From: an uncultured delta proteobacterium
Lineage (GTDB): Bacteria > Myxococcota_A > Polyangia > Polyangiales > Polyangiaceae
Length of the DNA stretch: 64,000 bases
Assembly (NCBI GenBank): GCA_963716725.1
Contig: CAVQUB010000002.1
Location: 288,001-352,000 of the forward strand
Direction: 5' to 3'
Shown: in pieces, positions 447 through 57,618 of the stretch
How positions within the stretch are numbered: position 1 is the stretch's first letter
How the letters are laid out: each line of letters starts with the position of its first letter
Translations under genes and position numbers: made by a program
The notes under the pieces: generated by a model
Told to the model about the DNA's origin: nothing
Seen by the model: only the letters and a program-made list of their open reading frames with translations
Database searches by the model: none

Positions 447-1199
447 ATGTCGCCAGCGCCGCGCACGCGAAAGAAGGCTCCTCGCACGGATCGCTCGAAG
501 TCAGGTGCCGCCAAAGGGGTGGTGCCCGCGTTCGATCTGCTCTGTCGCCAGCATCCCGACGCGCACTGCGAGCTCGAACACGCCGATCCCTTCCAACTCG
601 TGGTGGCCACGGTGCTCTCGGCCCAAGCCACCGACGTCGGCGTCAACAAGGTCACGCCCGAGCTGTTCCGGCGCTGGCCCAACCCGGCGGCGCTGGCCGG
701 CGCCAAACCCGCCGAGGTCGAGCAGGTGATCGGCAGCCTGGGCTTCTTCCGTCAGAAGACCAAGAGCATCACCGGCCTCGCGCAGCGCTTGATGGCCGAT
801 CACGGCGGCCAAGTGCCACGCACGCTGACCGAGCTGACCCAGTTGCCCGGTGTCGGACGAAAAACGGCCAACGTCGTGCTCGGCGTGGCCTTCGGCGCGC
901 CCGAGGGGGTGGTGGTCGACACCCACGTGCTCCGGCTCTCGCAGCGCCTGGGCTGGAGCAAGCACGACACGCCCGAGAAGGTCGAGCTCGACTTGATGCA
1001 GCTCTTGCCGCGTGAGCACTGGGACCGCGTCTCGCACACGCTGATCTTCCACGGTCGGCGTGTCTGCTCGGCGCGCAAGCCAGCGTGCGCGGCCTGCAGC
1101 GTCAGCGAGCTGTGCCCGAGCGCGTTCGCGGCCGAAGCGGTCGGTCGCAAACCGCCACGGGTGCGCGCCGACACCGGAAAGAAGCAGACCAAGAAATGA
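447..1199 (+). CDS. nth: Endonuclease III (HhH-GPD DNA glycosylase)
   Basis: LVVATVLSAQATD, LPGVGRKTANVV, VDTHV and the C-x6-C-x2-C-x5-C 4Fe-4S motif. Confidence 0.95.
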   Translation: MSPAPRTRKKAPRTDRSKSGAAKGVVPAFDLLCRQHPDAHCELEHADPFQLVVATVLSAQATDVGVNKVTPELFRRWPNPAALAGAKPAEVEQVIGSLGFFRQKTKSITGLAQRLMADHGGQVPRTLTELTQLPGVGRKTANVVLGVAFGAPEGVVVDTHVLRLSQRLGWSKHDTPEKVELDLMQLLPREHWDRVSHTLIFHGRRVCSARKPACAACSVSELCPSAFAAEAVGRKPPRVRADTGKKQTKK

Positions 1200-2435
1200 C
1201 GACCGTCGCCCGCATCGAGCTGTTCCACGTCGCGGTCCCGCTGCCGGCCACCTTTCGGCCCAGCTGGATCCCCGGATTCCCGCAGAATGAGAACCGGTTC
1301 ACGCTGGTCAGGATCACGACCGACGACGGCATCGAGGGATACAGCGCCGGGCCCAGCATGGGCCACGAACGCTCGGGGCTGGGCGAGTTGGTCGGCCCGT
1401 ACCTGATCGGCGCCGACGCCACCGACATCGATCTGGTGCAACAGCGCCTGCGAGAGATGAGCTACCTCGGGTGGCGCAACTGGTGGATCGAGCCCGCGTT
1501 CTGGGACATCTTGGGCAAGCTCGCGCACAAGCCCGTGTACGAGCTGCTGGGCGGCAAGTCTCGCGAGGTGTCGCTCTACGCTTCGACGGGCGAGGTGAAG
1601 GAACCCGGCGCGCGCATCGCCGAGGCCGAGGCTCGCCTGGCCGAGGGATTCTCCGCCATCAAGCTGCGCGTCCACGACTTCGATCCTGCCGTGGACGAGC
1701 GGCAGGTGGTCGAGACCGCCAAGGCCATGGGCGGCCGCATGAAGATCGGCGTGGACGTGAACCAGGCTTGGCGCGTGACGGCCATCGGCCCGGCGCCGCT
1801 CTGGGATCTCGCGCGCGCCAAGCGCTTCGCCGACGTCTGCGCTGATTCGGGCTTGGCGTGGGTCGAGGAGCCTCTGCCGATGGACGCCTACGACGACCTC
1901 TCCGAGCTCACGCGCGTACAGCCGCGTCCCCATCAGCGGCGCGGAGCTCCACACCCAAGGGCTGCCTGAGCTGCGCATGATGATCGAGCGACGCTGCTAC
2001 TCGATCTTCCAACCCGACGCGATCTTCACCGGTGGCATCGCGCAGACGTTGGAGGTCGCGCGACTCGCCAAGCAGGCCGGCCTGATCTACACGCCGCACA
2101 CCTGGACCAACGGCATCGGCTTCGCGGTGAACCTTCAGCTCTATCTGGCGACGGACTCCCAGAAGGAACTCGAGTATCCGCTGAACCCTCCAGGGTGGGT
2201 GCCGGAGGCTCGGGACGGCCTGCTCGAGACGGCATTCCTACACCGTCGGGGCAAGCTCGAGCCCCCGACCTTGCCCGGGCTCGGCTTCCGGATCGATCCG
2301 CGCGCGCTCGCTCGGCACGGCAAGCGCTTCTTCGTGATGGACAAGAAACGCCTGGTCTGGTTCTCGCTCCGCAGCCGAGGGCTCAAGGCGTCCCTCGAGA
2401 TCGACAAGGCCCGCAAGGCGGCGGCGCGCAGCTGA
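1196..2435 (+). CDS. Mandelate racemase/muconate lactonizing enzyme (enolase superfamily); one frameshift near 1913
   Basis: ATGA overlap with nth; WDILGK, KLR, DVNQ, EEP in the first frame; continues YSRVPISGAELH...FQPDA...PGLG in a shifted frame. Confidence 0.85.
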
Positions 2436-2499
2436 CCGAGCACCGGCCCTCGGTGCCGCACCGGGTGCCGCTCTGCCACCAAGAGCTGAAAGGCCTCAC

Positions 2500-3054
2500 C
2501 TAGTCTCCCAGCAGCTTGCGCACCTTGTCGAGCAGCTCCTTCACCTTGAACGGCTTGACGATGTAACCGCGGGCGCCCACCTGGATGCCGTGCACGATGT
2601 CGGCCGGGGAGTCTCGAGCCGTGATGAACAAGATCGGAATGCGCCGGGCGCGGGGCACGAGCTTCAAGCGCTGCGCCACGCCAAAGCCGTCGAATCCCGG
2701 CATCATCACGTCGAGCAGCACCAGCTGCGGTGGGGGCTCCGCGGTCGCCTGCGCAAACGCTTGCGGACCGTCTTTCGCCCAGCTCACCTCGTAGTCGGGC
2801 TCCAACATCCGGACCAGCAACTTCGCGATGGCGGCATCGTCGTCGGCAACCACGATTCGCTTCCGCGGCGGCGGCGGCGGCGGTTTCTTGCTGACCGGCG
2901 ACCCCGGGGCCTTCGAGAGCCTCCTCGACGGACGCTTCGACGAGGTCGCCTTCGACGGGGTCGCCTTCGACGCCGAAGGCCTGGCCGGAGCTTTGGACGG
3001 CGTGCTCCTCGGGCGCAGCGACTTGCGACCCGGCGGCGCCTTCGAAGCTGGCAT
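2500..3054 (-). CDS. Single-domain response regulator with N-terminal Ser/Lys/Pro-rich disordered extension
   Basis: IVVADDD, LLDVMMPGFDG, FITA, KPF receiver motifs. Confidence 0.9.
   Translation of the reverse strand: MPASKAPPGRKSLRPRSTPSKAPARPSASKATPSKATSSKRPSRRLSKAPGSPVSKKPPPPPPRKRIVVADDDAAIAKLLVRMLEPDYEVSWAKDGPQAFAQATAEPPPQLVLLDVMMPGFDGFGVAQRLKLVPRARRIPILFITARDSPADIVHGIQVGARGYIVKPFKVKELLDKVRKLLGD
2935..2979. repeat. Three imperfect 15-nt tandem repeats encoding xxSK-type pentapeptides
   Basis: cttcgacgaggtcgc / cttcgacggggtcgc / cttcgacgccgaagg. Confidence 0.6.
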
Positions 3055-3154
3055 CGTCCCCTTGTACGTTTCGAAAGTGAGGGTCGCAAGCGTCCTGTCG
3101 GACGGTCGCCCCTCGACGCTTCCCTTCGCCGGCGCGCCTCGCTAAAACGCCGAG

Positions 3155-4402
3155 GTGTTCCTCGGTTATTCGTGCCGCCGCTGCAACGCCGAGCTTGGTC
3201 CCGACGAGGCGACCTACCGCTGCCCCCGCTGCTCCGGCAACCTCGACGTTCGCTGCGACATCGCCCAGACCGACCGCGACCGCATCGCCCAGAGCCGCGA
3301 CCCTTCCCTTTGGCGATACGCGCCCCTCTTGCCGGTGCCCGTGGCGGCCGACGACGCCGGGCCGCTTCGAGGCGTCGGTGGCACACCGCTCTATTGCGCG
3401 CCGCGGCTCGCGCAAGAGTTCGGACTCGGCCGCGTCTGGCTCAAGGACGAAGGTCGCATGCCCACCGGCTCGCTCAAAGATCGCGCGAGCGCGGTGGTGG
3501 TGCAGCGAGCAAGAGCCCTCGGCCTGAGTCCGATCATCACGGCGTCCACCGGGAACGCCGGAGTGGCGCTGGCCGCCATGGCGCCCTGTGCGGGCATCGC
3601 TGCGGTTATTTTGGTTCCCGCGAGCGCGCCGCCCGCCAAGTTGGCGCAGCTCCAGGTGTTCGGCGCGCAGCTGGTGCTAGTGCGCGGCAGCTACGACGAC
3701 GCCTTCGATCTGAGTGAAGCCGCGGCTCGCGAGTTCGGCTGGTACTGCCGCAACACGGCCCAGAACCCCTTCACCACCGAGGGCAAGAAGACAGTCTCCT
3801 TCGAGATCGCCGAACAGCTCGGCTGGCGCGCGCCCGATCGGGTGTTCGTCTCCGTCGGCGATGGCAACATCTTGGTCGGCGTGCACAAAGGCTTTAGCGA
3901 GCTGTTGGCCCTGGGCTTCATCGACCGCATGCCCAAGATCATGGGAGTGCAGGCCGAGGGCTCTTCGCCCATCGCCCGCGCCTTCCTCGCAGGCAGTGAT
4001 CGCATCGAGCCCTGCCAGACGAACACGCTGGCCGACAGCATCGCGGCTGGACGCCCGGCGGACGGCGAGCGCGCGTTGGCAGCGGTGCGCGAAACAGGCG
4101 GCGCGTTCGTCATCGTCAGCGATGACCAGATCTTGGAGGCGATCCCGAAGTTGGGGCGCGCCGCGCAAGTCTTCGCGGAGCCCGCGGCCGCAGCAGCTTA
4201 CGCGGGCCTCGAGGCCCTCGCCCGAGCCGGCGAGCTCGCCTCCGACGAAGAGGTCGTCGTGCTCGTCACCGGCACCGGCCTGAAAGACGTCGGCGCGGCG
4301 ATGCGTGCCGTTCCGGGCGCCCCACCCAGCATCGAGCCCTCGCTTTCGGCCCTCCGGGACGTACTATCCGTGGTTCCGCCCACCCAAGAAAGACAGCCAT
4401 GA
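3155..4402 (+). CDS. thrC: Threonine synthase-like fold-type II PLP enzyme
   Basis: N-terminal CxxC...CxxC, PTGSLKDR, ASTGNAG, EGKKT, EPAAA; first gene of a coupled operon. Confidence 0.8.
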   Translation: MFLGYSCRRCNAELGPDEATYRCPRCSGNLDVRCDIAQTDRDRIAQSRDPSLWRYAPLLPVPVAADDAGPLRGVGGTPLYCAPRLAQEFGLGRVWLKDEGRMPTGSLKDRASAVVVQRARALGLSPIITASTGNAGVALAAMAPCAGIAAVILVPASAPPAKLAQLQVFGAQLVLVRGSYDDAFDLSEAAAREFGWYCRNTAQNPFTTEGKKTVSFEIAEQLGWRAPDRVFVSVGDGNILVGVHKGFSELLALGFIDRMPKIMGVQAEGSSPIARAFLAGSDRIEPCQTNTLADSIAAGRPADGERALAAVRETGGAFVIVSDDQILEAIPKLGRAAQVFAEPAAAAAYAGLEALARAGELASDEEVVVLVTGTGLKDVGAAMRAVPGAPPSIEPSLSALRDVLSVVPPTQERQP

Positions 4403-5858
4403 TCGACCTGACCGTGAACGAAGCCGGCCTCGCCAAGGCCGTGCAGCGCGCAAAAGAGAAGAACGTCGTCATCCCGACGCTGGCGCAGATGGTCGATCCC
4501 AAGCAGATCCCCGCGAAGGTCGTGGCGAACCTGAGAGACATCGGCCTCTGGGACCTGAACCCGGCCAACCTGTTCCGGATCGGCTGGCACAACGATCCGG
4601 TGGAGAAGGGTGGCGGCTTCGGCCGCGTGAACTACGTCGAGCTGCCCAGCGCCCTCACGGGGGTCGAAGCACGCATCATCGCGCTGGTCGGCAAGTGGTT
4701 CCCCACTGGCGCCCACAAGGTCGGTGCCGCCTTCGGCTGCCTCGCGCCGCGCCTCGTGACCGGCCAGTTCGATCCGACCTCGCAGAAGGCCGTCTGGCCC
4801 TCCACCGGCAACTACTGCCGCGGCGGTGCCTACGACTCCGCGCTGCTCGGCTGCGAGTCCATCGCGATCTTGCCCGAGGGCATGAGCAAGGAGCGCTTCG
4901 AGTGGCTCTCGAAGGTGGCCGGCGAGGTGATCAAGACTCCTGGCACCGAGAGCAACGTGAAGGAGATCTTCGACAAGTGCTGGGAGCTCCGCCGCTCCGG
5001 CCAATCGCTGATGATCTTCAACCAGTTCGAGGAGCTGGGGAACTACCTCTGGCACCACGAGGTCACCGGCCGCGCCATGGCCGAGGTGCTCGAGCACGAG
5101 CTCGGACCCAAGGGCCGCTTTGCCGGGCTCGCCGTCACCACCGGCTCCGCCGGCACCATCGCGGCCGGCGATTTCCTCAAGAAGCAGTTCTCCGGCAGCA
5201 AGATCGCCGCCAGCGAAGCCGCCCAGTGCCCGACGCTCTTGGCCAACGGCTTCGGCGAACACCGCATCGAGGGCATCGGCGACAAACACGTGCCCTGGAT
5301 CCACAACGTCAAGAACACCGATCTGGTGATTGCCGTCGACGACGAGGCGAGCGTCTCTGCCATTCGACTGTTCAACGAGCCCGCGGGCAAGAAGCACCTG
5401 GCCGGTCGTGGACTCGAACCGGCGTTGATCGAGAAGCTTTCGCTGCTGGGGATCTCCGGTGCGGCCAACCTGATCTCCGCCATCAAGATGGCCAAGTGGT
5501 ACGAGCTCGGGCGCGAGAGCGTGGTGATGACCGTGCTCACTGATTCCGTGGAAATGTACCGCAGTCGCCTCGCCGAGCTGAACGCGGAGCGCGGAGCGTT
5601 CACCGAGGTGGACGCGGCGGTCGCCCACGAACGCCACATCTTGGGCGCCGGCACCGACCTGATGGAGGAGCTGAGCTACCCCGCGCGCAAGCGCGTTCAC
5701 AACTTGAAGTACTACACCTGGGTCGAACAACAGGGCAAGACGCACGCCGAAATCCAGGAGCAGTGGCACGACGACGAGTACTGGACGGGGATCCCCGAGG
5801 TCGCGCCCAAGCTCGACGAGCTGATCGTCGAGTTCAACGCGCGCACGGGGCTCGGCTG

Positions 5859-5859
<1 letters not shown>
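4399..5859 (+). CDS. Fold-type II PLP-dependent enzyme (cysteine-synthase-like, purine-catabolism-associated)
   Basis: PTGAHKVGA (PLP Lys), WPSTGNYCRGG, TGSAGT, HRIEGIGDKH; ATGA overlap with upstream gene. Confidence 0.8.
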
Positions 5860-8485
<2,626 letters not shown>

Positions 8486-8495
<10 letters not shown>

Positions 8496-9715
8496 GCGGC
8501 CCCCGTCCCTTGTTCCTGGATGCAGGCGACAGCTCCGCCCTGATCACCGGCGGAGTGGTGGCGGCCTTCGGCCCGCACGCCCGCGCGAGTGACGACGCAA
8601 GAGTGATCGACTGCCGCGGCATGTCGGTCCGTCCTGGCGCCGTCAACGCGCACACGCACTTGTACAGCGGCCTCGCTCCGCTGGGCATGCCCGCGCCGGA
8701 GCCGCCGCCAGAGAGCTTCGTGCAAATCTTGGAACGCGTCTGGTGGCGACTCGATCGGGCGCTCGACGCCGCGTCGCTCCGCGCCGCCGCCGAGCTCTAC
8801 ATCGCCGAGGCGCTGCTCGCAGGCACCACGACGCTGATCGATCACCACGAGTCGCCGAGCTTCATTTCAGGCTCTCTCGAACTGCTCGCTGATGCCGCCC
8901 AGACTCTGGGCTGTCGCCTGGCCACGGGCTACGGCGCGACCGATCGCAACCGGGGCCCCGACGAAGGACGCCGAGGTCTCGACGAGTGCCAGCGCTTCGC
9001 TCGGGAAAACACCCGCCCGCTGGTCCGACCGCTAGCCGCGCTGCACGCCTCGTTCACCGTGAGCGACGACACGGTGATGCACGCCGGGAAGCTCGGCTTG
9101 CCGATGCACGTGCACGTGGCCGAAGATGCCGCCGACGTCGCCGACGCCAAGCAGCGCGGCTATGCCGGTCCGCTCCAGCGCCTGATGGCCCTGGGAGCCT
9201 TGCCCCCGGGTTCGATCCTCGCACACGGCGTGCACCTCAGCGAAGACGAGGTGCGGAGCGCCGATGGTGCCGGGCTCTGGTTGGTGCAAAGCCCGCGCTC
9301 CAACGCCGGCAATCGGGTCGGCTTCGCTCGCACCCTCGACGCTAGCTGCCACGTCGCCCTCGGCACCGACGGATACCCCGCAGACATGCGGGCCGAACGG
9401 GCGGCGCTCTTGACCGAGGCCCGAGGCGCGGGACACGTCATGGACGATGCGCTCGGCGCGGCACGCGCCCGCGGCGCCTACCCGCTGGCGTCCTCGCTCT
9501 TCGGTCTGAGGCTCGAGAGTGAAGTCGGCGCGGGGTGCGCGGCCGATCTGGTCGTCTGGCGTTCCCTCGACGACAACTCACCGCTCTACGTCGTGGTGGG
9601 AGGCGAGCTCGTCGTGGAAAGCGGGCGCCTTTGCCGCGGCGAGATCCAGCTCATTCGAAGCCGGGCCGCCGAGCAGGCGCCCTTGCTCTGGCAGCGCATG
9701 AAGGCCCTGCCATGA
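8486..9715 (+). CDS. ssnA: SsnA-like metal-dependent amidohydrolase
   Basis: NAHTHLYSGL, WWRLDRALD, DHHES, HASFT, HVHVAED, LGTDG. Confidence 0.75.
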
Positions 9716-10980
9716 GTCGACTCTCCGTCGATTTCGATCGCCTCTACGCCTCCCTCACCACGCTGGGCGAGATCGGCGCGTACCAGGACACACGCACGGG
9801 TCTCAGCGGCGTGAGTCGCCTTGCTCTCACGGCCGCCGACGGCGCCGGGCGACGCCACGTGGTCGAGCAGATGAACTCCCTTGGGCTCTCGGTGAGCGTT
9901 GACCGAATCGGGAATGTGTTTGCCCGGCGGGAAGGCCTCCGCCCCGAGCTTTCGCCGGTGATGATGGGGTCGCACATCGACTCGGTCGAGACGGCGGGAC
10001 GCTTTGACGGTTGTCTGGGAGTGCTCGGCGGCCTCGAGGTGATCGCGACCCTGAACGATCACGGCGTGCGAACCGCGCGCCCCGTGCTGGTCGCCTTCTT
10101 CACCGACGAGGAGGGCTCGCGCTTTGGCACGGACATGCTGGGCAGCGCCGTCGCGACCGGGCGGCTGTCGCTCGATGAGGCCTACGGTCTCCGGGACAAG
10201 CGAGGGCTCGTGCTGCGCGACGAGCTCGAGTCCATCGGGTTTCTCGGCGACGCATGCGAGCGGATGGCCCCGCCGCATGCCTATCTCGAGTGCCACATCG
10301 AGCAGGGCCCGGTGCTCGCGTCCCGCGCTGTCGAGCTGGGCGTCGTCACCGGGGTGCAGGCCATCAGCTGGCACGAGCTCACCATCGTTGGCAAGAGCGC
10401 CCACGCGGGCACTACGCCCATGGGCCTGCGCGCCGATCCGGCGGTGGCCGCGGCGCGCATCGCGCTCTTCATGCGCGAGATGGCCACTTCGGGTCGCTAC
10501 GGCGATGGCATGCGAACGACGATGGGCTCGATCATCCCGCGACCCGGGTTGGTCAACGTCGTGCCCGCCGAGGTGGTGTGCACGGTGGATCTTCGAAACC
10601 CGGATGACGCTCATATGCGGCGCGCCGAGACGGATCTCATCGGGTACTACGCCGAAGTCGAGAAACTCGAAGGGGTGAAACTGAGCTGGCGCCAGACCGC
10701 GCGCACCGACACCGTGACCTTCGCAGAGGGCGTGCAGGACCGCATCGAGGCCGCCGCCAAAGCCCGAGGCCTCTCGACGGCTCGAATCGTCTCGGGCGCC
10801 GGCCACGACGCCCAAGAGCTGTCGCGCATCGCGCCGGCCGGCATGATCTTCGTTCCCGGTGAGCACGATGGCATCAGCCACAACCCTCGCGAGCTCTCGA
10901 CCCGGGAGCAGTGTGGCAACGGCGTGAACGTGCTTCTGGACGTCCTCACCAGCTTCGCCAACGAGGAGACCCCAGCATGA
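9712..10980 (+). CDS. M20 Zn-dependent hydrolase (allantoate amidohydrolase / N-carbamoyl-amino-acid hydrolase family)
   Basis: [44 protein letters not shown]. Confidence 0.9.
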
Positions 10981-11921
10981 CAGCTGCTCGCGTGGTTCGC
11001 GTCGCAGTGACTGAGACGCGGAATGCCTTTGCCGACATGCCCGCGAGTGTGGGCGAGCTCGAGCAGCTCGAGGGCCGACTGGAGCAGTTGCGCGCGGCAA
11101 ACGTGGAGCACCACGTCGATCTCATGCGCGCCGCCCGGGCCCAAGGCGTGCAAATCATCGGCTTCGGCGAGCTCTTCGCTGGCCCGTACTTCGCCCTCGG
11201 TAAGAACCCGCTCTGGTTTGCCCTGGCCGAAGATGCGCGGGTCGGTCCGACGGTGACGAGGCTGTCGGCGGCCGCCAAAGAGCTCGGACTGATCGTGGTC
11301 GCTCCCATCTACGAGCGGGACCCCTCCGGCCAGCGCTTCAACACGGCCGTGGTCATCGACGAACGCGGCGCGGTGCTCGGCAAGTACCGCAAGACCCATC
11401 TGCCCTGCGGCGAGAACGAGCAAGGCGCCTTCGACGAGCCCTTCTACTACGACAAGAGCGACGGTCGGAACGGCGCGGGCGAAGCCGTCGTCTCCGAGAA
11501 CCCGTTTTTTCCCGTCTTCCAAACTTCCCTCGGCCGCATCGGCGTCGCCATCTGCTACGACCGCCACTTCGACTGCGTGATGCCCTCGCTGGCTCGCGAG
11601 GGCGCCGAGTTGGTGTTCGCTCCCGCCGTCACCTTCGGACAGAAGAGCCAGCGCATGTGGCACCTCGAGTTCCAAGTCGATGCCGCACGGCACAACCTCT
11701 TCATTGCGGGGTCGAATCGGCGCGGCAGTGAGCCGCCCTGGGACCAACCGTACTTCGGCGAGAGCCACATCGCGGGGCCGAACGGCGTGCTGCCGAACCT
11801 GAGCTCGCACAAAGACCTGATCGTCGCCGACGTCGCCCTCGACGAGCTGTCGAGACCCGACCCCTCGGGTTGGGATCTGCCGCGAGACGTGCGCTACGAC
11901 ATCTACTCGAAGCGCGGGTGA
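10977..11921 (+). CDS. Nitrilase-superfamily amidase (beta-ureidopropionase / N-carbamoyl hydrolase-like)
   Basis: E-K-C triad: GELF, YRKTHLP, ICYDRHF. Confidence 0.88.
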
Positions 11922-11941
11922 GGGTCGAACAGCGGCGGCCC

Positions 11942-13975
11942 TCAAACGCTGACGTAGCTCACGCCGCTCTGCTCGAGCACGCTCCGACCGAGCAGCGCCA
12001 TGAGCCGTAAGTAGGTGAGGTCCACCTCGCCGCTGGCAGTGCCCCTGAGCCCGTCTGCCGGTGTGGCCTCGGCACAGGCGAGGTCGAAGCCCTCGCCCCG
12101 GTAGCGCGCGAGACCGTCCTCGAAGGTCGCGCTGAAGTCCTGGCCTCGAAAGCGAGCGAGCACCGCGAAGCCCGCTTCGGTCTTCTCGACGAAGAATCCG
12201 TCACGGCTGCGGTGCAGCTCGAACTGCTCGCGGCTGCCGAAGAAGCGCGGCTTGAGCAGGTAGGGCCCGCCGTCTTCCGGGCAAAAGACGTCGCAGTTGC
12301 CGCACTCGTTGCAGAAGTCCGCAAAGTTCGCCAGCTGGTGCTTCTTCTCGACGCTGAGCTGACCCTCGCAGCGGATCTGGAACAATCCGGAGGCGTCGCG
12401 CACCGCCTTTTCGATGGGGATCACCTGGCGCGGCAGCTCAAAGGTGAAGTTCGCGTCGTTGGGGCAGACCGGAACGCACTTGTCGCAGGTCAGGCAGTCG
12501 AAAAAGACCAGCAGCGAGCCGACCTTCTTGGGAGACTTGTTGTTGGCGGCGCGCGTGTAGCGAGCGTCGACCAAGAGCTGCTCGAGGTAGTCGCGCGTAT
12601 TTTCCAGCTTCGCTTCCGAGACCCAGCGCGCCCAGAGTTCGGAGCCGGCGGCCGCTCGGAGATCTCCGCCGTCGGCCAAGGCTCGACGGCATGCGGCGTT
12701 CTCGCCGCCGCCGGCTCGCGAAAGGGTCAGCTCGGCGTTGCCCCGACCACGAACCACGAGGTCTTCGATGGTCCTGGCCTGCACGGCGTCCATGCGGACT
12801 CCAAGCTCACGGAAGTACCCGTCGAGCCGGGCGTAGCCCCCAGTGCGCAGCAGATCGGTGCAGACCGTCACGGGTACGAGTCCGAGGCAGACCGCGTCGG
12901 GGAAGTTCTTGGCGTCGATGCCCGCAGAGAAGGAGATCGGGAAGCGGTCGCCGAAAGTGTCCCGGAAGCGCCCCACCAAGCTCATCGCCAGTACGTGGAG
13001 CGGCTGACCGGACAGGTACATCACCTTCTCGGAGGGAGGGAAGAAACTCCGCTCGTTCTGGACGATCAGCGTGTTGCTGAACTTCACGCCGAAACCGCGC
13101 CCCAGCTTGTCGGCCTTGTCGCCCAGGCGGCCCACGAGCGCGACGGCCTGCTCCCAGCTCGCGTCTTTCTCGAAGGCTTCGTCGGGCGCGTGATCCGCGT
13201 AGCCCAGCACCTCGTTCAGCAACCGCCGAACCTCGGACTTGCCGAGCAGCGTCGGGTTGAGCTTCACGATGCAGTGCAGCCCGACCTCTTCCAGCAAGAA
13301 CGCCGTGATGCGCTCGATCTCGCCGGGTGGGCAGCCGTGAAAAGTCGAGAGCGTGAGCGTGTCGGAGAGCCGAGTGCGAAACTCGAGATCGCGGTATTGC
13401 GACAGTTCGGACGGTATCTGACGGCGCAGACGCTCCACGACCTCCTTCGCGTCCATCATGCCTCCGAGGAAGGCCCGCACGCGCTCGCTCTGAATGCCAG
13501 CGAGGTCGTAGCCGACGCTCATGTCGAAGATCACGCGGTCGAAGCCCGGGTCGAGATCGAGCTTGCCGCTGGCGATCAGGATCTCGACCAGCATCGAGGC
13601 CTTCACGTACTCCTCCAGCGACTGCTCGAGCGTCAGCTCCTGAGACCACTCGACGTTGTAGCCGATGGTCTCGGCGTCGATGCAGGGGCGGGGGATCTGC
13701 AGGCGATCCATGATTTGGACGGTCTTCAGCTCGAAGATCCTGCCGCCGCCCAGGAACGAGAGCACGATGTTCTGCGCCAGCTGAGAGTGGGGGCCGGCGG
13801 CGGGCCCGAGCGGCGACGAGGCGGTGTGGCCGTGGAAATTCACGGACAAGTCCTTGCCCGGCAGGCCGCGCACCATCTTCTTCTGGGGCAGATGGAAGAT
13901 GGACTGTTCGGTCTCGATCTGGCTCAGCGCCCGCGTCAGGAGACGTGCGAAGGGATACGGAACGAGCTCGGCCAC
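11942..13975 (-). CDS. ygfK: YgfK-like oxidoreductase (dihydropyrimidine-dehydrogenase-like domain plus 4Fe-4S ferredoxin domains), short form
   Basis: GPAAGPHSQLAQN, RPCID, NVEWSQEL, STFHGCPP, KLNPTLLG, CLTCDKCVPVCP, CNECGNCDVFCP. Confidence 0.78.
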   Translation of the reverse strand: MAELVPYPFARLLTRALSQIETEQSIFHLPQKKMVRGLPGKDLSVNFHGHTASSPLGPAAGPHSQLAQNIVLSFLGGGRIFELKTVQIMDRLQIPRPCIDAETIGYNVEWSQELTLEQSLEEYVKASMLVEILIASGKLDLDPGFDRVIFDMSVGYDLAGIQSERVRAFLGGMMDAKEVVERLRRQIPSELSQYRDLEFRTRLSDTLTLSTFHGCPPGEIERITAFLLEEVGLHCIVKLNPTLLGKSEVRRLLNEVLGYADHAPDEAFEKDASWEQAVALVGRLGDKADKLGRGFGVKFSNTLIVQNERSFFPPSEKVMYLSGQPLHVLAMSLVGRFRDTFGDRFPISFSAGIDAKNFPDAVCLGLVPVTVCTDLLRTGGYARLDGYFRELGVRMDAVQARTIEDLVVRGRGNAELTLSRAGGGENAACRRALADGGDLRAAAGSELWARWVSEAKLENTRDYLEQLLVDARYTRAANNKSPKKVGSLLVFFDCLTCDKCVPVCPNDANFTFELPRQVIPIEKAVRDASGLFQIRCEGQLSVEKKHQLANFADFCNECGNCDVFCPEDGGPYLLKPRFFGSREQFELHRSRDGFFVEKTEAGFAVLARFRGQDFSATFEDGLARYRGEGFDLACAEATPADGLRGTASGEVDLTYLRLMALLGRSVLEQSGVSYVSV

Positions 13976-13995
13976 GGTGGCCGGATGATAGCCTG

Positions 13996-15015
13996 TCAAC
14001 GGCCCGCGCGGAACTTGCCGATCAGCTCTTCCGAAGCTGTGTACGGGTCGGTCTCGCGGCGCGCAATGCGTCCGGCGGCCGCTTCGACCTCGTCGCCGAG
14101 TTCAGCGAGGGCTTCTTCGGCGAGTGCGTCGCGCAAGAACGACAGCATCACGAGGTTCATGCGCTCCGCGCGCCGGGCGCGCCCCGCGTCGCTGTCGAGC
14201 CAGGCGCGGTGTTCACGGAGCTTCTGTTCGAGCTCATCGACGCCCGTGCCCCGGGTCGCCACCGTCTTCACGATGGCCGGCGTCCAGCCCGCGCTCGTTG
14301 CGCCGGACTCGGCTCGAGCGTTCGCGGTAACGCCGCTGTGGCCCCGGGATTTGGACGCGGAGACAGAGAACAAATCGCCGCTCAGCGCCAGCATCACTTC
14401 GAGATCGCGCACCGTAGCGTCAGCGCCATCTCGGTCGGCCTTGTTGACGGCGAAGACGTCGGCGCACTCGAGGATGCCCGCCTTGATGGCTTGCACGTCG
14501 TCACCGAGGCCTGGCGCCATCACCACCAAGGTGGTGTGTGCCATGCGGGTGACGTCCAGTTCGTCTTGTCCCACGCCAACCGTCTCGACGATCACCACCT
14601 CGGCGCCCCAGGCGTCGAGGATCCGGCTCATGTCGCTGGCGGACCGCGAAAGCCCCCCCAGCGCGCCGCGGGTGGCTACCGAGCGAATGAAGACCTCGGG
14701 GTCCTCGAAGTGCCGCTGCATCCGGATGCGGTCGCCGAGGATCGCGCCTCCAGAAAACGGGCTGGTGGGGTCCACCGCAACCACCCCGACGCGATGACCC
14801 GCTCTGCGCAGGCGCACGACCAACTGATCGGTGAGCGTGCTCTTGCCGGCGCCCGGCGTCCCGGTGACGCCGATCAGCCAGGCATGCCCGCTGTGGGGGT
14901 AGAGCTCCTTCATCAGCTCGCGATGGCCGGGCAGCCGATCGTCGACCGCGCGGCAGGCGCGCGCCGCGGCGAGGGTATTCCCCGAGAGCACGCGCGCGGC
15001 AAGCTCACTCGGCAT
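13996..15015 (-). CDS. meaB: Methylmalonyl-CoA mutase-associated GTPase (copy 1)
   Basis: GTPGAGKST, VDPTSPFSGGAILGDRIRM, ETVGVGQ, NKAD. Confidence 0.92.
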   Translation of the reverse strand: MPSELAARVLSGNTLAAARACRAVDDRLPGHRELMKELYPHSGHAWLIGVTGTPGAGKSTLTDQLVVRLRRAGHRVGVVAVDPTSPFSGGAILGDRIRMQRHFEDPEVFIRSVATRGALGGLSRSASDMSRILDAWGAEVVIVETVGVGQDELDVTRMAHTTLVVMAPGLGDDVQAIKAGILECADVFAVNKADRDGADATVRDLEVMLALSGDLFSVSASKSRGHSGVTANARAESGATSAGWTPAIVKTVATRGTGVDELEQKLREHRAWLDSDAGRARRAERMNLVMLSFLRDALAEEALAELGDEVEAAAGRIARRETDPYTASEELIGKFRAGR

Positions 15016-17918: not shown

Positions 17919-18210
17919 TGTTTCTGCGGTCCCGACCGGGACCGGCCCCGCGGAAACCCACGATGAACCGCCCCCAGGGCCCCGGGATTCAGCCGGCGGG
18001 AGCCCCAAAATCCAGCCGTTTGTCGGGTGCCCAACCGCTTTTTCCATGGGGCTTGCACCCGGACGCCGGCTGGGAGATGTCCTCCAAGGAGTTCTGCCCG
18101 CTGACCGTCCTTGACCCCCCCGATGGCGAACGGCTACCTTCCCGTCGCTCTCGAGGCGCGTGGCCCCGGGACGTCGAATTTGCTCGCTCGAAGTAGGTAG
18201 TCGAAAGCCC

Positions 18211-20013
18211 ATGCGTGCGCGGGCGGGGGATCCGCCCCGCACAATGACTCAGAAGGTCCTCGCCGGACGAGCCGACGATCCGGAGCTCAAGGGCGACTTG
18301 GTGCGGGTCAAGGTCGACCAGGTCATCCTGGCGCGGGAGCCGCAACGCGTCCTCGGGGAGGCGTTGCAGGCCGGCATGAAGAAATGCGCGGTCGAGGTCG
18401 CCGTGGCCTACGACACACGCTGCGTGACGACCGATGGCGCCGAGACGCCGGGCGACCGCACGATGCGGGCTGCGCTCGCAACGGGCCTTCTGCTCTGCCG
18501 ACCCGGCATCGGCTTTCCGGCTCCGGTCCACCTGGAGCGTTTCGGCAGTCCAGCGCGACTGGCGCTCACCGACGAGCCCCGCCTCGCGTCCGTCGGTGGG
18601 GCAGGCATGCTCACCTTGGTCGCCGCGCCGTCGCAATTGGCCGAAGTACTGGCCACTGGCGCGCTCTGGCTCAGGCCACCGCGCAGCGTTCAGGTCCTGC
18701 TGTCGGGCCGAATCCGTCCCTTCGTCTGCGTTCGCGACGTCGCCCTCGAGCTCGTGCGCCGCGGACTGGGAGAAATCATCCAGCGAGTCGATCGCGAACA
18801 CCGCGCACCCGTCGTCGTGGAGTTTGCCGGACCGAGCGCACGCCTCTTGTCGGTGCCCGATCGCGCGGTGCTCGCCGCGCTCGGTCCCCACGTCGGCGCC
18901 GCCGCGGCAGTCTTCGTCAGCGACGAAAAGACCGAGGTCTACCTCCGCGATCAACGTCGCTCCAAGGCTCACCGCAGCCTCACGCCTGATCCGGGCGCCC
19001 CCTGCGACGACGTGATCAGCGTGGATCTCTCCGCCGTGGACCCCTTGGTCATGGATGAACAAGGCGTGGTCCGCCCGGTGCGCGAGCTGGCGGGCAAGCC
19101 GGTGGTGCAGGTCGTGCTGGGCGGCGACTCGGGCGCGTCGCTCCGCGATCTCTTGGCAGCAGCCGCGCTGCTCAAGAGCAAGCGCGTGCCACCCCGCCTC
19201 GATCTCTTGATCGCGCCTCCGTCGCGTCAGGCCCTCGAGGTGCTCGCTCACTCGGGCGCGCTCGTAGATCTCATCGCCACGGGCGCACGGCTGATCGAGC
19301 CGGATCAGCGCCTGGTGACCGGCGAGCTCTACCCGCCCCCGGCCGGCGGCGTCTCGCTTCGGACTTGTGATCCGGAGCCAAGCGCTCCGCCCGAGCGTCG
19401 CTTCGTGGTCGCCTCCGCCGAGACCATCGCTTACGCGGTGGCCTCGGGCAGCGTCGGGGATCCTCGGTCCTTCAAGCGTCCAGTCCGCGTCACTGTGCCC
19501 CGCACCCTGCCCACCGACGACGTGCTCATCGTGCGCAAGTCGAAGACCAAGGGCAAGGCCGAGGGCGACAGCGCCAAGGCGACGCTCGCGACCTTCCCCC
19601 AACCCACCGGCTGGAACGCCGCCGCGGCGCTCACCTTGGTCAAGGAGCGCTCAATCCCCACCGAGCCCAGCGCGATGCTGCTGCCAACCCTGGACGCGGT
19701 CCGCTGGGCCGCGCGTCACGCATCCGAGCTTGGCCCTGCCCTGCGCGCGGTCATCGCGGAGCACCTGCCCGCAGGCATCGTGCCCCAGTTCGCCGCGCTC
19801 GGCATCGCAGCCTTGACCACAGACGCCGCGACGCTCAAGAAGCTCGGGCTCGAGCCGAGCATCTCCTTGCCGGCCCCGGCCGACGGCGAGGTGTCCGTCA
19901 GCGCCGGCTCGACCAAGGCCACTCTGCGCTGGGAGGCTGTCGGCGCCGAACGCGCCTGGACCGAGGCCGGCACCGCCCGGGGCTCGACGGCCGTGGCAAA
20001 ACCGGGCCGCTGA
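18211..20013 (+). CDS. Aconitase-fold protein, degenerate (Fe-S ligands lost)
   Basis: Colinear with small bacterial aconitases (VHLERF, LSVPDRA, DLSAVDPL, APPSRQAL, ASAET...DPR) but catalytic and Cys motifs are replaced. Confidence 0.8.
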   Translation: MRARAGDPPRTMTQKVLAGRADDPELKGDLVRVKVDQVILAREPQRVLGEALQAGMKKCAVEVAVAYDTRCVTTDGAETPGDRTMRAALATGLLLCRPGIGFPAPVHLERFGSPARLALTDEPRLASVGGAGMLTLVAAPSQLAEVLATGALWLRPPRSVQVLLSGRIRPFVCVRDVALELVRRGLGEIIQRVDREHRAPVVVEFAGPSARLLSVPDRAVLAALGPHVGAAAAVFVSDEKTEVYLRDQRRSKAHRSLTPDPGAPCDDVISVDLSAVDPLVMDEQGVVRPVRELAGKPVVQVVLGGDSGASLRDLLAAAALLKSKRVPPRLDLLIAPPSRQALEVLAHSGALVDLIATGARLIEPDQRLVTGELYPPPAGGVSLRTCDPEPSAPPERRFVVASAETIAYAVASGSVGDPRSFKRPVRVTVPRTLPTDDVLIVRKSKTKGKAEGDSAKATLATFPQPTGWNAAAALTLVKERSIPTEPSAMLLPTLDAVRWAARHASELGPALRAVIAEHLPAGIVPQFAALGIAALTTDAATLKKLGLEPSISLPAPADGEVSVSAGSTKATLRWEAVGAERAWTEAGTARGSTAVAKPGR

Positions 20014-24873: not shown

Positions 24874-25857
24874 TCAGCTCGACCGAAACACCTCGAGCAG
24901 TCGCCGTGCACCCTCGGTCGGCGTGATGCTACCGCTCTGAACCAGCGCCTCGATGGCCGGACCCGCGCTCTTCACGCCGGGGTCATCCCACAACTCCGCC
25001 GCGAGCGCCTCGCGCACCAAGCCCGAGAGCCAGTGCTTTCGTTGCGCACTTCGGCGCTCCTCGAGGGCGCCGCTCAACTGGAGAAAGCGGCGATGCTCTT
25101 CCAAAAGCGCCCAGACCTCCTCGATGCCGCGCGCCTCGATCGCGCTGACGGTAGTGACCCGCGGCACCCACGGCGAGCCGTCACCGCGCAAGAGTCGGAG
25201 CGCGCTTCGATACTCGGCCGCAGCGCGCTCCCCGCGCTGGCGCTCGGCACCGTCGGCCTTGTTGATGGCGATCACGTCGACGAGCTCCAGAATTCCGCGC
25301 TTGATGCCCTGCAGCTCGTCACCGGCGCCCGCGAGGGCCAGGAGCAAAAACGAGTCGACCATGCTCGCCACCAGATGCTCGCTCTGCCCGACCCCCACCG
25401 TCTCGACCAAGACCACATCGAAACCAGCGGCCTCGCACACGAGCAGGGCTTCGCGCGTGTGGCGCCCGACGCCTCCAAAGGCGCCCGCCGCCGGGCTGGG
25501 GCGAATGAACGCGGCCTCTGCGGCCGAGAGCCGCGACATGCGCGTCTTGTCCCCGAGGATGCTGCCGCCCGACACCGAGCTCGAAGGGTCCACCGCGAGC
25601 ACCGCCACCCGATGCCCTGAGGCGATCAGGAACAAGCCCAGCGCCTCGATGAAGGTGCTCTTGCCCGCGCCTGGGACCCCGCTCACGCCGATTCGGGCGG
25701 CGTTGCCGGTCTGGGGCAGGATGCGTTCGAGGAGCCGCTGGGCGGCGTCGTGGTGATCGCTGCGCCTCGACTCGACGAGCGTGATCGCCTTGCCGATGGC
25801 CCGGCGCTCGCTCGCGAGCACCCCCCGAGCCAGCTCCTCGATCTCGTCGGGGCTCAC
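24874..25857 (-). CDS. meaB: Methylmalonyl-CoA mutase-associated GTPase (copy 2)
   Basis: GVPGAGKST, VDPSS..GGSILGDKTRM, GDELQGIKRG; directly downstream of the mutase. Confidence 0.95.
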   Translation of the reverse strand: MSPDEIEELARGVLASERRAIGKAITLVESRRSDHHDAAQRLLERILPQTGNAARIGVSGVPGAGKSTFIEALGLFLIASGHRVAVLAVDPSSSVSGGSILGDKTRMSRLSAAEAAFIRPSPAAGAFGGVGRHTREALLVCEAAGFDVVLVETVGVGQSEHLVASMVDSFLLLALAGAGDELQGIKRGILELVDVIAINKADGAERQRGERAAAEYRSALRLLRGDGSPWVPRVTTVSAIEARGIEEVWALLEEHRRFLQLSGALEERRSAQRKHWLSGLVREALAAELWDDPGVKSAGPAIEALVQSGSITPTEGARRLLEVFRSS

Positions 25858-25863
25858 GGCGCC

Positions 25864-28014
25864 TCAGCGTGCGCGGCGCGCCTCGATGGCGCCCAGCACT
25901 CGATCCGCCGACACCGGCACGGCGGTGCCGGGACCGAAGACCGCCGCCACACCGGCCGCTTCCAGGGCCGGGTAGTCCTGCGCGGGGATCACTCCGCCAC
26001 ACACCACGATCACGTCCTCGGATCCCGCGCGCCGAAGCTCGTCGATGAGCTCCGGCACCAAGGTCAGATGACCCGCGGCTTGCGTGGAGACTCCGATGGC
26101 GTGCACGTCGTTCTCGATGGCCTGACGGGCGACCTCGGCCGGTGTCTGGAAGAGCGGTCCGACGTCGACGTCGAAGCCGGCGTCGGCAAACGCAGTAGCG
26201 ATGAGCTTCGCGCCGCGATCGTGGCCGTCCTGCCCCATCTTGGCCACCAAGATGCGCGGGCGCCGACCCTCGGCCTTCAGAAACTGCTCGATGCGTTCGC
26301 GCAGCGCTCCCCACTTCGCGTCATCCCGATAGTAGCTGCCGTACACGCCCGCGATGCTGCGCGTCTCGGCCTGGTGGCGGCCCCAGGCTGCCTCGAGCGC
26401 GTCCGAGATCTCGCCGACGCTGGCCCGGGCGCGCGCCGCCGCGACGCTGAGCTCGAGCAGATTGCCCTGACCCGCCTCGGCGGCTTTCCGCAGCGCGCCG
26501 AGGGCGTGCTCGAGCGCCTCTCCGTCCCGCGCCTTGCGGACGGTCTCCAGGCGGGCGATCTGCGACGCTCGCACCGCGGTGTTGTCCACGACCCGGACCT
26601 CGACCGGCTCTTCGTGCGCGGCTTGGTACTTGTTCACGCCGACCACGACGTCGTTGCCACGATCGACGCGCGCCTGCCGGCGGGCCGCTGCTTCTTCAAT
26701 GCGCAGCTTGGGCATGCCCGCCTCGACGGCGCGCGTCATGCCACCGAGCTTCTCGACCTCGTCGATGAGCGCGAGCGCCTTTCCGGCGAGGGCGTGCGTC
26801 AGGTGCTCCATGAAATAGCTGCCCGCCCAGGGATCGACCACGCGGGGGATACCGGTCTCGTGCTGGATCACCAGCTGCGTATTGCGGGCGATGCGCGCGG
26901 CGAAGTCACTGGGCAGCGCCATCGCCTCGTCGAAGGAGTTGGTGTGCAGGCTCTGGGTCCCGCCGAGCACCGCCGCCATGGCCTCGATGGTGGTGCGGAT
27001 CACGTTGTTGTGGGGATCTTGCTCGGTGAGGCTGACGCCGCTGGTCTGACAGTGCGTGCGCAGCAGCATCGAATCGGGGTTCTTGGGGCCAAAGTGGCGC
27101 TTGATTAGGGTGGCCCAGAGCAGCCGCGCTGCCCGGAGCTTGGCCACCTCCATGTAGAAGCTCATGCCGATGCCGAAGAAGAACGACAGCCGCGGCGCGA
27201 AGCTGTCGATGTCGAGGCCCTTGGCCAGCGCGGCGCGCACGTACTCGAGGCCGTCGGCGAGCGTGAACGCCAGCTCCAGATCTGCCGTCGCCCCGGCCTC
27301 TTGCATGTGATAGCCCGAGATCGAAATCGAGTTGAAGCGCGGCATCTGTCGCGCCGTGTATTCGATCACGTCGGCGACGATCCGCATCGAGGGCGCCGGC
27401 GGATAGATGTAGGTGTTGCGGACCATGAACTCCTTCAGAATGTCGTTCTGAATGGTCCCGGTCAGCTCCCCGGGTTTCACGCCCTGCTCCTCGCCGGCCA
27501 CGATGAACATGGCCAAGATGGGCAGCACAGCGCCGTTCATCGTCATCGACACGCTCATCTCTCGGAGCGGGATGCCGTCGAAGAGGATCTTCATGTCCTC
27601 GACGGTGTCGATGGCAACGCCTGCCTTGCCGACGTCGCCGACCACGCGCGGGTGATCGCTGTCGTAGCCGCGATGGGTGGGCAGATCGAAGGCGACACTG
27701 AGGCCCTTCTGGCCTCCAGCCAGACCTCGGCGATAAAACGCGTTGGACTCTTCGGCGGTGGAGAAGCCCGCGTATTGGCGGATGGTCCAGGGACGTCCGG
27801 CGTACATGGTCGCTTTGGGCCCGCGAACGAAGGGGTAGTCACCCGGGATGCTGTCCCCGAAGTCGAGCCCCTCGAGGTCCTGTCGAGTGTAGAGCGGCTT
27901 CACGTCGATGCCCTCGGGCGTGTGCCAGACCAGGGTCTCGGGATCTTTGCCTTTGAGCTCGCCGGTCGCGAGCCGAGTCCAGTGGCTGAGGTCAGCGCTC
28001 TGCTTCGGATCCAT
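25864..28014 (-). CDS. scpA: Methylmalonyl-CoA mutase (B12-dependent)
   Basis: [29 protein letters not shown]12-binding motif. Confidence 0.97.
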
Positions 28015-28081
28015 GGCGCAGACTTTTAGCACCGAACGCCTGGCGGTGGACGTTCCCCCGCTCGTGCCTTATCCCTCGACC

Positions 28082-31336: not shown

Positions 31337-31337
31337 C

Positions 31338-57611: not shown

Positions 57612-57618
57612 GTCGTCC

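Follow-up and report, generated by a model that had tools for sequence, protein, structure and literature searches.

Which metabolic route is encoded by the seven contiguous genes lying between positions 3155 and 13975 of a 64,000-nucleotide stretch (hereafter, the window: positions 288,001 to 352,000 of contig CAVQUB010000002.1, assembly GCA_963716725.1) from an uncultured member of the Polyangiaceae? Six of them code for a ThrC-like pyridoxal phosphate (PLP) enzyme, a second PLP enzyme (PLP2), a molybdenum (Mo) hydroxylase without a flavin adenine dinucleotide (FAD) domain (Xdh), an SsnA-like amidohydrolase, an M20 carbamoylase (M20a) and a CN-hydrolase, i.e., an amidase of the nitrilase superfamily (CNH); the seventh codes for a short form of YgfK. 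A previous, sequence-only reading of the window had interpreted the set as a variant reductive purine-degradation cluster, and the comparative data reported here (the homology of the core trio Xdh, YgfK and SsnA, the synteny, and the swapping of one module) support that interpretation. According to these data, the cluster probably represents an environmental form of the reductive urate (2,8-dioxopurine) pathway, hydrolytic and carrier-dependent in character.

The steps of this pathway were not elucidated until 2025, and it has been described as a feature of anaerobes living in the gut. According to the main-text accounts of Li et al. (bioRxiv 10.1101/2025.05.19.654654) and Liu et al. (10.1101/2025.04.24.650524), urate is reduced to 2,8-dioxopurine by XdhD or DOPDH; 2,8-dioxopurine is reduced by YgfK and its ring is opened by SsnA, yielding ureidomethylhydantoin; HyuA converts the hydantoin into 2,3-diureidopropionate; the two carbamoyl groups are removed by YgeW (plus carbamate kinase), or by the Clostridioides difficile hydrolase UacY, and by YgeY; lastly, YgeX converts diaminopropionate into pyruvate. 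The two accounts differ on which ureido group is removed first. Moreover, FAD-less redox enzymes and one hydrolytic replacement are already present in C. difficile as described by Li et al., and YqeB, YqeC and SelD are reported by Liu et al. from every cluster-bearing strain of their gut library.

The six genes spanning positions 3155–11921 of the forward strand overlap consecutively by 4, 1, 10, 4 and 4 bases and converge on the YgfK-type gene (11942–13975, reverse strand); thus, all seven genes of the overlapping operon and its convergent partner were found as the sequence-only reading had described them. Since the G+C content of the window is 68%, coding frames were judged by their third-position G+C, and the proteins were scored against the Pfam and NCBIfam profiles with curated cut-offs. 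Probing the window with the E. coli K-12 proteins (tblastn, E ≤ 1e-5) retrieved no match for ygeW, ygeY, hyuA, yqeA, ygfM or xdhB, and the sole match of ygeX was a weak one to the ThrC-like gene. The absence of YgeW, YgeY, DpaL, HyuA and carbamate kinase from the window, as previously claimed, was therefore borne out.

Concerning the core trio, Xdh (5859–8495, forward strand; 877 residues once read through) consists of the Fer2, Fer2_2, hammerhead, MoCoBD_1 and MoCoBD_2 domains, that is, two [2Fe-2S] and the molybdenum cofactor (Moco) domains on a single chain; the FAD domain is absent, and no YgfM or XdhB subunit is encoded in the window (tblastn, E. coli queries). Its best family is TIGR03311 ("selenium-dependent xanthine dehydrogenase"), of which the pieces readable in the window cover positions 2–424, 437–544 and 548–786, and whose cut-off is passed by the intact orthologue from another genome of the same genus, G002 (932.9 bits vs. 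830.45). E. coli XdhD and XdhA each share about 30% identity with the G002 protein. According to Li et al. (10.1101/2025.05.19.654654), residue E606 of XdhD is linked to the formation of 2,8-dioxopurine; in 17 environmental Xdh sequences the corresponding column, which falls in a poorly aligned region, holds a Lys, with a conserved Glu/Asp one residue earlier.

The short YgfK is 677 residues long from the GTG at 13975, the residue at which the proteins of the relatives begin. The YgfK model TIGR03315 (1012 positions) is matched at 5–397 and 910–984 alone (419 bits vs. a cut-off of 835), and the identity with E. coli YgfK is 41% over residues 7–405 and 32% over residues 904–979. Hence, the protein is not a full-length YgfK (DOPOR): the GltD-like NAD(P)H/FAD module is absent, and the flavin mononucleotide (FMN)-type barrel and two [4Fe-4S] clusters are retained. 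The two CxxCxxCxxxCP motifs are invariant in 39 short YgfK sequences; the part matched at 41% corresponds to the FMN site modelled by Li et al. (10.1101/2025.05.19.654654), and pig dihydropyrimidine dehydrogenase (DPD) and dihydroorotate dehydrogenase (DHODH), through their FMN barrels, are the top Foldseek matches of the AlphaFold2 (AF2) model (pLDDT 87). As for the third core protein (8486–9715, forward strand; 409 residues), SsnA is its best-matching family (NF005540, 245 bits, below the cut-off of 444; TIGR03314, 234 bits), and almost its whole length aligns with E. coli SsnA, at 34% identity. The metal-site and catalytic residues are retained: the HxH motif (56, 58), H208, H210, E213, H247 and D295 are invariant in 16 sequences, including E. 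coli SsnA and GuaD.

The set of markers of selenium-dependent molybdenum hydroxylases (SelD, YqeB and YqeC) is incomplete. SelD is present, as the sole marker found, on another contig of the same genome, G000 (C6:227368–228291), with one in-frame TGA as in selenocysteine-containing SelD; yqeB was found in none of the seven genus genomes (0/7), and yqeC neither in the genome itself nor in the five other cluster carriers searched. The organism thus probably uses selenium despite yqeB and yqeC not being found. That these two genes were not found implies, in turn, that the Mo enzyme may differ in its cofactor or reaction, and argues that this TIGR03311 member is either matured without the selenium-cofactor system or plays a different role.

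An XdhC/CoxI-like gene (PF13478) adjoins the ThrC-like gene in seven loci from other taxa (L073, L074, L065, L085, L110, L089 and L098), in two of them together with a gene for a MobA-like nucleotidyltransferase. The XdhC/CoxI-like genes, from Myxococcaceae/Archangium-type and Phycisphaerales loci, share 24–28% identity with E. coli YqeB over its N-terminal half, and the XdhC-like and MobA-like genes are probably the Moco maturation factors of the cluster in those loci. Neither type of maturation gene was found in the window.

We then considered how far the arrangement is conserved. Seven genomes of the genus were searched, four of which are at least 90% complete, and four genomes of the genus keep the same order: an enolase-family gene, then the genes for the ThrC-like enzyme, PLP2, Xdh, the SsnA-like enzyme, M20a and CNH, facing short YgfK–MeaB-like–accC–accB–aroQ. 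Outside the genus, a scan for the alignment pattern of the short YgfK, with one genome per species, gave at least 546 confirmed loci, the best 80 of which, all from other taxa, were tallied by tblastn over flanks of up to 10 kb, many of them ended by contig ends. These best 80 loci belong to Polyangiaceae, Sandaracinaceae, Myxococcaceae/Archangium, Nannocystaceae and Anaeromyxobacteraceae, and to Planctomycetota, Acidobacteriota, Gemmatimonadota, SAR324, Comamonadaceae, Rhodoplanes, Vulcanimicrobiota and Elusimicrobia. Around short YgfK, parts of the cluster are met again in no fewer than eight phyla and in 60 of the 80 loci, the remaining 20 having none of the tallied genes nearby: Xdh occurs in 33/80, the SsnA-like gene in 34/80, M20a in 25/80 and CNH in 23/80, and a FAD subunit in 1/80. 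The conservation of the neighbourhood is thereby confirmed, and the arrangement is far beyond chance. The attribution to a myxobacterium is correct as regards the host, the nearest named records being Polyangiaceae metagenome-assembled genomes (MAGs), but the cluster is not confined to myxobacteria: the same set is found in Planctomycetota, Acidobacteriota, SAR324, Pseudomonadota and others.

In three cultured strains of Rhodoplanes (L081, L091 and L101), a short YgfK at 56% identity is accompanied within 10 kb by neither Xdh nor an SsnA-like or lower-pathway gene, so that this reductase may serve other purposes there, or work with partners encoded elsewhere.

The distribution of the oxidative route was compared as well, through its marker 5-hydroxyisourate (HIU) hydrolase. 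Among 41 relatives, those with an SsnA-like match at E ≤ 1e-50 were counted as carriers (G000–G005, G009 and G019; eight genomes in three genera), and four genomes with weak SsnA-like matches (33–37% identity) were counted among the 33 other relatives. HIU hydrolase was found in one carrier out of eight (G009) vs. 14 of the 33 others; within the genus it occurs in one genome of seven, G006, which is 73% complete and is the only one where neither the SsnA-like gene nor short YgfK turned up. As G009 possesses both HIU hydrolase and the cluster, the oxidative and reductive routes are not strictly alternative.

The ureido groups would be removed by the two carbamoylases. M20a (9712–10980, forward strand; 422 residues) passes TIGR01879 (377.5 bits vs. 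a cut-off of 204) and reaches 413 bits against the allantoate amidohydrolase subfamily NF006769 (cut-off 452); among solved structures, N-carbamoyl-beta-alanine and N-carbamoyl-L-amino-acid hydrolases are the closest to it, and blastp gave no significant match between it and E. coli YgeY. CNH (10977–11921, forward strand; 314 residues; PF00795, 135.8 bits) scores 137.8 bits against the N-carbamoylputrescine amidase model AguB (TIGR03381; cut-off 410) and can be assigned to the CN_hydrolase superfamily only; its nearest solved structures are beta-ureidopropionases and N-carbamoylputrescine amidohydrolase, followed by D-carbamoylases. For both proteins, the closest solved relatives are thus decarbamoylases. 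YgeW and carbamate kinase, which the sequence-only reading had noted as lacking from the window, did not turn up elsewhere in the genus either: ygeW and arcC were each found in 0/7 genus genomes, and the best match of the YgeY model in the genome itself, on another contig, reached 106.6 bits vs. a cut-off of 321.5.

In the 80 loci, YgeW-like, carbamate kinase and YgeY-like genes lie near short YgfK in 9, 7 and 11 cases, respectively. If M20a and/or CNH are called module A, and YgeW-like, carbamate kinase and/or YgeY-like genes module B, module A occurs in 30/80 loci and module B in 11/80, and both together only in L117. Representatives of module B score 403.6 bits with the YgeW model (cut-off 453), 312 with the carbamate kinase model NF009007 (cut-off 266) and 194 with the YgeY model (cut-off 321). 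In the Polyangiaceae locus L046, whose cluster is otherwise the same, module B stands in place of A beside a PLP2 77% and an Xdh about 80% identical to those of the window. On a quick, unrooted FastTree phylogeny of 70 short YgfK sequences (26 labelled A, 9 labelled B and 35 unlabelled and uncounted), the module label changes six times, and at least five of these changes are forced by well-supported branches; as few changes were obtained in 26 to 34 of 500 label shuffles, so that the labels are weakly clustered. These figures should be read bearing in mind that the labels hang on short flanks, that the tree is a quick and unrooted one, and that related genomes are not independent of each other. 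Functional equivalence predicts a repeated exchange within one reductase lineage, and the module swap therefore constitutes the main support for hydrolytic decarbamoylation. Our data support the view that the two carbamoylases occupy the place that YgeW, carbamate kinase and YgeY hold in the sister clusters. Thus, the hydrolytic removal of the ureido groups previously suggested gains weight from the alternation of the two modules, with at least five label changes, though the activities themselves are predicted from homology.

Nine Comamonadaceae/Rhodoferax loci (L052–L054, L058, L060, L061, L068, L071 and L102) hold Xdh, the SsnA-like gene and short YgfK alone, having within 10 kb neither decarbamoylase module nor the PLP pair; they adjoin genes for a Liv-type ABC transporter, a TctC receptor, an isocitrate/tartrate dehydrogenase-like protein and a MOFRL/glycerate-kinase-like protein. 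Upstream of the operon, the enolase superfamily gene (MR_MLE; 1085–2432, forward strand) was considered as well. This superfamily includes N-acylamino-acid racemases, and in G002 the gene ends 63 bases before the ThrC-like gene; as a candidate N-carbamoyl amino acid racemase of the cluster it was discarded, lying beside short YgfK in 0/80 loci outside the genus.

The first two genes of the operon code for PLP enzymes. The ThrC-like protein (3155–4402, forward strand; 415 residues; PF00291, 263 bits) passes the threonine synthase model TIGR00260 (205.8 bits vs. 167.1), scores 298 bits with NF006050 (cut-off 303), and has threonine synthases as its nearest solved structures. It is a fold-type II protein with an N-terminal four-Cys ribbon, and C7, C10, C23, C26 and K108 are invariant in 11 orthologues. 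Since each genome searched holds a second, better-scoring thrC (on contig C11 in the genome itself), the gene of the cluster is a paralogue. PLP2 (4399–5859, forward strand; 486 residues; PF00291, 57 bits) scores 94.9 bits with the cysteine synthase model TIGR01139, far under its cut-off of 350.95. Its fold is that of CysK/CBS, extended by additional helices at the N- and C-termini (AF2, pLDDT 86; best Foldseek matches, cysteine synthases and CBS), and the PLP lysine (K107), the Asn-loop (S135-T-G-N138) and the Gly-loop (G249-S-x-G-T253) are invariant in 21 orthologues. The predicted complex of the two enzymes scored 0.00, which speaks neither for nor against their association.

PLP2 is found in 31/80 loci, a second PALP enzyme in 30/80 and the two together in 28/80; DpaL is found in 1/80 and is absent from the window. 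A DpaL-family gene does exist in the genome itself (contig C28:1195–2352; NF006058, 307 bits vs. a cut-off of 276). The family occurs in one of the eight carriers, namely this genome, vs. three of the 33 other relatives, and in none of the six other genus genomes. The earlier idea that two PLP enzymes replace DpaL is thus favoured by the loci and complicated by the gene on C28; judging from co-occurrence, the PLP pair most likely takes over the function of DpaL. The C28 gene lies near the start of a 58-kb contig, among genes unrelated to purines, and may represent either an accessory gene or contamination from binning, which is estimated at 3.9% for this genome.

The opening of the hydantoin ring is the weakest link of the scheme. 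No hydantoinase is encoded in the window, in line with the sequence-only reading, but a D-hydantoinase (586 bits, 39% identical to HyuA) is encoded on contig C5 of the same genome, unlinked to the cluster. D-hydantoinases occur in all seven genus genomes (E ≤ 1e-10), above the family cut-off in six of them, and, at E ≤ 1e-60, in 8/8 carriers vs. 11/33 other relatives. Hence, the HyuA function is probably supplied in trans rather than replaced, and the step is probably performed by the unlinked hydantoinase.

Combining these observations on gene content, domain architecture, conservation, co-occurrence and the module swap, we can depict the following scheme, in which all substrates and products, the source of the electrons and the assignment of the ureido groups to the two carbamoylases are inferred from homology and by analogy with the known pathway. 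The FAD-less TIGR03311-type Mo enzyme would reduce urate to 2,8-dioxopurine (first step); short YgfK would reduce the purine ring at its FMN barrel, with electrons passing through the two [4Fe-4S] clusters (second step). Because it has no NAD(P)H module, its donor would be an external carrier, probably ferredoxin. The SsnA-like amidohydrolase would open the six-membered ring (third step), and the five-membered hydantoin ring would be opened in turn, probably by the D-hydantoinase of contig C5 (fourth step). M20a and CNH would hydrolyse both ureido groups of 2,3-diureidopropionate to CO2 and NH3 (fifth step); their presence in place of YgeW, carbamate kinase and YgeY would imply that no ATP is gained. 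Lastly, the CysK-like and ThrC-like enzymes would replace diaminopropionate ammonia-lyase, turning 2,3-diaminopropionate into pyruvate and ammonia (sixth step). Conceivably, a CysK-like beta-replacement to serine could be followed by a ThrC/dehydratase-like deamination; racemisation plus elimination is another possibility.

Several observations weigh against this scheme. The proteins of the variant are known from their sequences only, from which their functions are deduced, and the SsnA-like, short YgfK, YgeW-like and YgeY-like proteins all fall below the curated cut-offs of models based on E. coli. Beta-ureidopropionases are the closest likeness of both carbamoylases, which fits pyrimidine breakdown too. 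YqeB and YqeC, shared by all the cluster-bearing gut strains of Liu et al., were not found here. Eleven loci with Xdh and the SsnA-like gene (Comamonadaceae, some SAR324) have neither module nearby. Within 10 kb, 79 of the 80 loci have no hydantoinase (1/80 with one), the context of the C5 gene is unrelated to purines, and one third of the cluster-less relatives (11/33) have a hydantoinase as well. The genome itself holds a DpaL-family gene, and G009 combines the cluster with HIU hydrolase; furthermore, the carriers among the relatives span three genera only, and G006 is only 73% complete. Lastly, no electron-donor gene is conserved next to the cluster: among the 45 recurring neighbour families of short YgfK (Pfam) there is no ferredoxin, flavodoxin or NAD(P)H-linked partner, the families being XdhC-like/MobA-like proteins (few loci), transporters and unrelated genes.

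The gene immediately upstream of short YgfK (by about 20 bases) codes for a MeaB-like G3E GTPase (13996–15015, reverse strand; TIGR00750, 315.6 bits) and follows aroQ–accB–accC; a second MeaB adjoins methylmalonyl-CoA mutase (24877–28068, reverse strand). The MeaB-like GTPase and accB/accC were rejected as parts of the cluster, being syntenic within the genus only, with MeaB absent beside short YgfK elsewhere.

Part of the evidence just listed would also be accounted for if the cluster degraded another N-heterocycle, such as a different oxopurine, a pterin-like compound or a pyrimidine. The Mo enzyme would then be a hydroxylase, short YgfK a DPD-like reductase, the SsnA-like protein a ring opener and the carbamoylases enzymes of the beta-ureidopropionase type. 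Such a function agrees with the N-carbamoyl-beta-alanine amidohydrolases among the solved relatives nearest to both carbamoylases, with the likeness of the short YgfK barrel to DPD and DHODH, with the position of the core proteins under the equivalog cut-offs of the E. coli models, and with YqeB/YqeC not being found and no hydantoinase lying in the cluster. However, the best family of every core protein is the one of the urate pathway (TIGR03311, YgfK, SsnA); the sister clusters hold genes (YgeW-like, carbamate kinase and YgeY-like) with no known occurrence outside the urate pathway; and the Mo hydroxylase and the two PLP enzymes would be superfluous for a plain pyrimidine route. Moreover, in the main text of Liu et al. 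(10.1101/2025.04.24.650524), E. coli YgfK selected 2,8-dioxopurine among three xanthine isomers. We thus regard a different heterocycle as unlikely, and the variant urate pathway as the reading that accommodates the core families and the sister clusters.

A further alternative concerns Xdh itself, whose frame is broken five times in the assembly (at about 7142, 7189, 7514, 8258 and 8410), the starting frame meeting a TGA at 7239. The gene might be a true pseudogene in this strain, and the cluster decaying and non-functional. The five breaks fall within 1.3 kb of one gene, and eleven of the further neighbours compared with G002 are each in one piece, the enolase superfamily gene being split. 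To be set against this, the orthologue is a single open frame of 877 residues in three genomes of the same genus. Furthermore, Logan contigs from four runs of four studies (biofilter, groundwater, sediment and wastewater), about 97–98% similar to the window, were aligned on 6900–8700: the letters at 7142, 7189, 7514 and 8410 are missing, and an additional A follows 8258, in all the contigs covering each site. At this degree of similarity the contigs represent other strains, not necessarily the same population. Once the five indels are corrected, Xdh is open for 877 residues and 90.8% identical, without gaps, to the 877-residue G002 protein, like its neighbours. The frame breaks are peculiar to this assembly, and since neither the contigs of four other studies nor the three relatives share the indels, they are very probably assembly errors.

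Other genes of the window are frameshifted too. The enolase superfamily gene changes frame between 1779 and 1966 (the G002 copy is in one frame), and in the topoisomerase A-subunit gene positions 1–341 of PF00521 lie in one frame and 345–430 in another, with the break at about 34425. Further frameshifted or truncated-looking genes were noticed among 31228–35706 (reverse strand), 18115–20010 (forward strand) and 56811–57629 (reverse strand), where, besides the topoisomerase gene, there are a GyrB/ParE-like gene without its N-terminal part, an aconitase-family gene, of which profile positions 135–291 alone are in frame, and a gene of the type II secretion system F type. The additional cases point to indel errors across the assembly, which is 84.5% complete in 35 contigs, with a contamination estimate of 3.9%. 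Taken together, these data leave a genuine pseudogene very improbable.

Finally, that the genes are mere neighbours without a common pathway (the PLP enzymes serving threonine and cysteine synthesis, the carbamoylases allantoate or pyrimidine salvage) might be argued from the ThrC-like protein passing the generic thrC model and from M20a approaching the allantoate amidohydrolase cut-off (413 vs. 452), but this is hardly credible given the overlapping frames, the set conserved beside short YgfK across at least eight phyla, the separate thrC and the lack of HIU hydrolase in six of the seven genus genomes.

As for the remaining features, no riboswitch or other RNA family was detected with Rfam in the window and in the loci of four relatives (gathering scores) or in 2400–3400 (E ≤ 1), and a pattern scan for promoters and terminators over 2400–14200 gave fewer sites than shuffled sequence. 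Far from the cluster, at 43814–47047 (reverse strand), lies an open frame of 1078 codons whose third-position G+C is of the coding type and which matches no Pfam family at E ≤ 1e-5.

If the variant operates as outlined, the same core chemistry would be widespread in bacteria of soil, groundwater, sediment and wastewater, including predatory myxobacteria, and the pathway could serve nitrogen scavenging by pure hydrolysis instead of ATP gain. It would also provide alternative catalysts (a carrier-dependent short YgfK, two diureidopropionate decarbamoylases and a PLP pair for diaminopropionate), of interest for the engineering of urate-degrading strains, and automatic annotations that read, for instance, "threonine synthase", "allantoate amidohydrolase" or "selenate reductase subunit" would need revision. 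A more far-reaching view, which we consider speculative and rather unlikely as a whole, is that this is the main route of urate/purine breakdown in a large non-gut set of bacteria, with four or five steps performed by new catalysts and with electron exchange between Xdh and short YgfK. The new catalysts would be a ring reductase and a Mo enzyme working without NAD(P)H, the latter matured without YqeB/YqeC, two hydrolytic decarbamoylases, and a two-PLP ending in place of DpaL, possibly via serine. The FAD-less Xdh and short YgfK may exchange electrons through their Fe-S clusters; if so, hypoxanthine and xanthine could be degraded without a net donor, which would explain a "reductive" pathway in oxygen-respiring myxobacteria.

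Judging by titles and the openings of abstracts, none of the papers listed on dioxopurine or on ygfK/ssnA/uric acid describes such a variant; Myxococcota, Planctomycetota, nitrilase and allantoate amidohydrolase go unmentioned in the main texts of the Li et al. and Liu et al. preprints, whose supplements could list such MAGs. Among the closest known systems is the E. coli K-12 locus ygeW-ygeX-ygeY-hyuA-yqeA...ygfK-ssnA-ygfM-xdhD, with which the window cluster shares a Mo hydroxylase, a YgfK-type FMN barrel (41%) and an SsnA-type amidohydrolase (34%), as well as, in the proposed scheme, the removal of two carbamoyl groups followed by a PLP step. Unlike in E. coli, the YgfM FAD subunit and the NAD(P)H/FAD module of YgfK are absent; HyuA, YgeW, YqeA, YgeY and YgeX do not belong to the cluster, and searches of the genus retrieved neither YqeB nor YqeC; in their stead, the cluster has an M20 carbamoylase from another subfamily, a CN-hydrolase and a pair of PLP enzymes from different families; and the Mo enzyme is a TIGR03311 member, whereas the family of E. 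coli XdhD is TIGR03313.

The C. difficile cluster (FAD-less XdhD, UacX and UacY), as outlined in the main text of Li et al., resembles that of the window in its FAD-less Mo enzyme, in a ring reductase with FMN and Fe-S clusters and no FAD domain, and in a hydrolase replacing YgeW and carbamate kinase. It differs in that the YgfK barrel, rather than the PydA-like UacX, is the homologue of the window's reductase; in the M20 enzyme and CN-hydrolase in place of the D-aminoacylase-like UacY; in HyuA and YgeX being missing from the cluster; and in hosts that are environmental bacteria rather than gut Firmicutes. The reductive pyrimidine pathway (dihydropyrimidine dehydrogenase, dihydropyrimidinase and beta-ureidopropionase) likewise unites a ring reductase built on an FMN barrel with a cyclic amidohydrolase and a decarbamoylase, and the unlinked D-hydantoinase belongs to the enzyme family of its cyclic amidohydrolase; the window cluster has, in addition, a Mo hydroxylase, one more decarbamoylase and a pair of PLP enzymes, and for ring opening it has a member of the SsnA/deaminase branch in place of a dihydropyrimidinase. 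Lastly, the module B clusters (e.g., L046, L088, L107 and L116) have short YgfK, Xdh, the SsnA-like gene and often the same PLP pair in common with the window; they would keep the carbamoyl-phosphate, ATP-yielding chemistry, in contrast to the purely hydrolytic pair predicted here.

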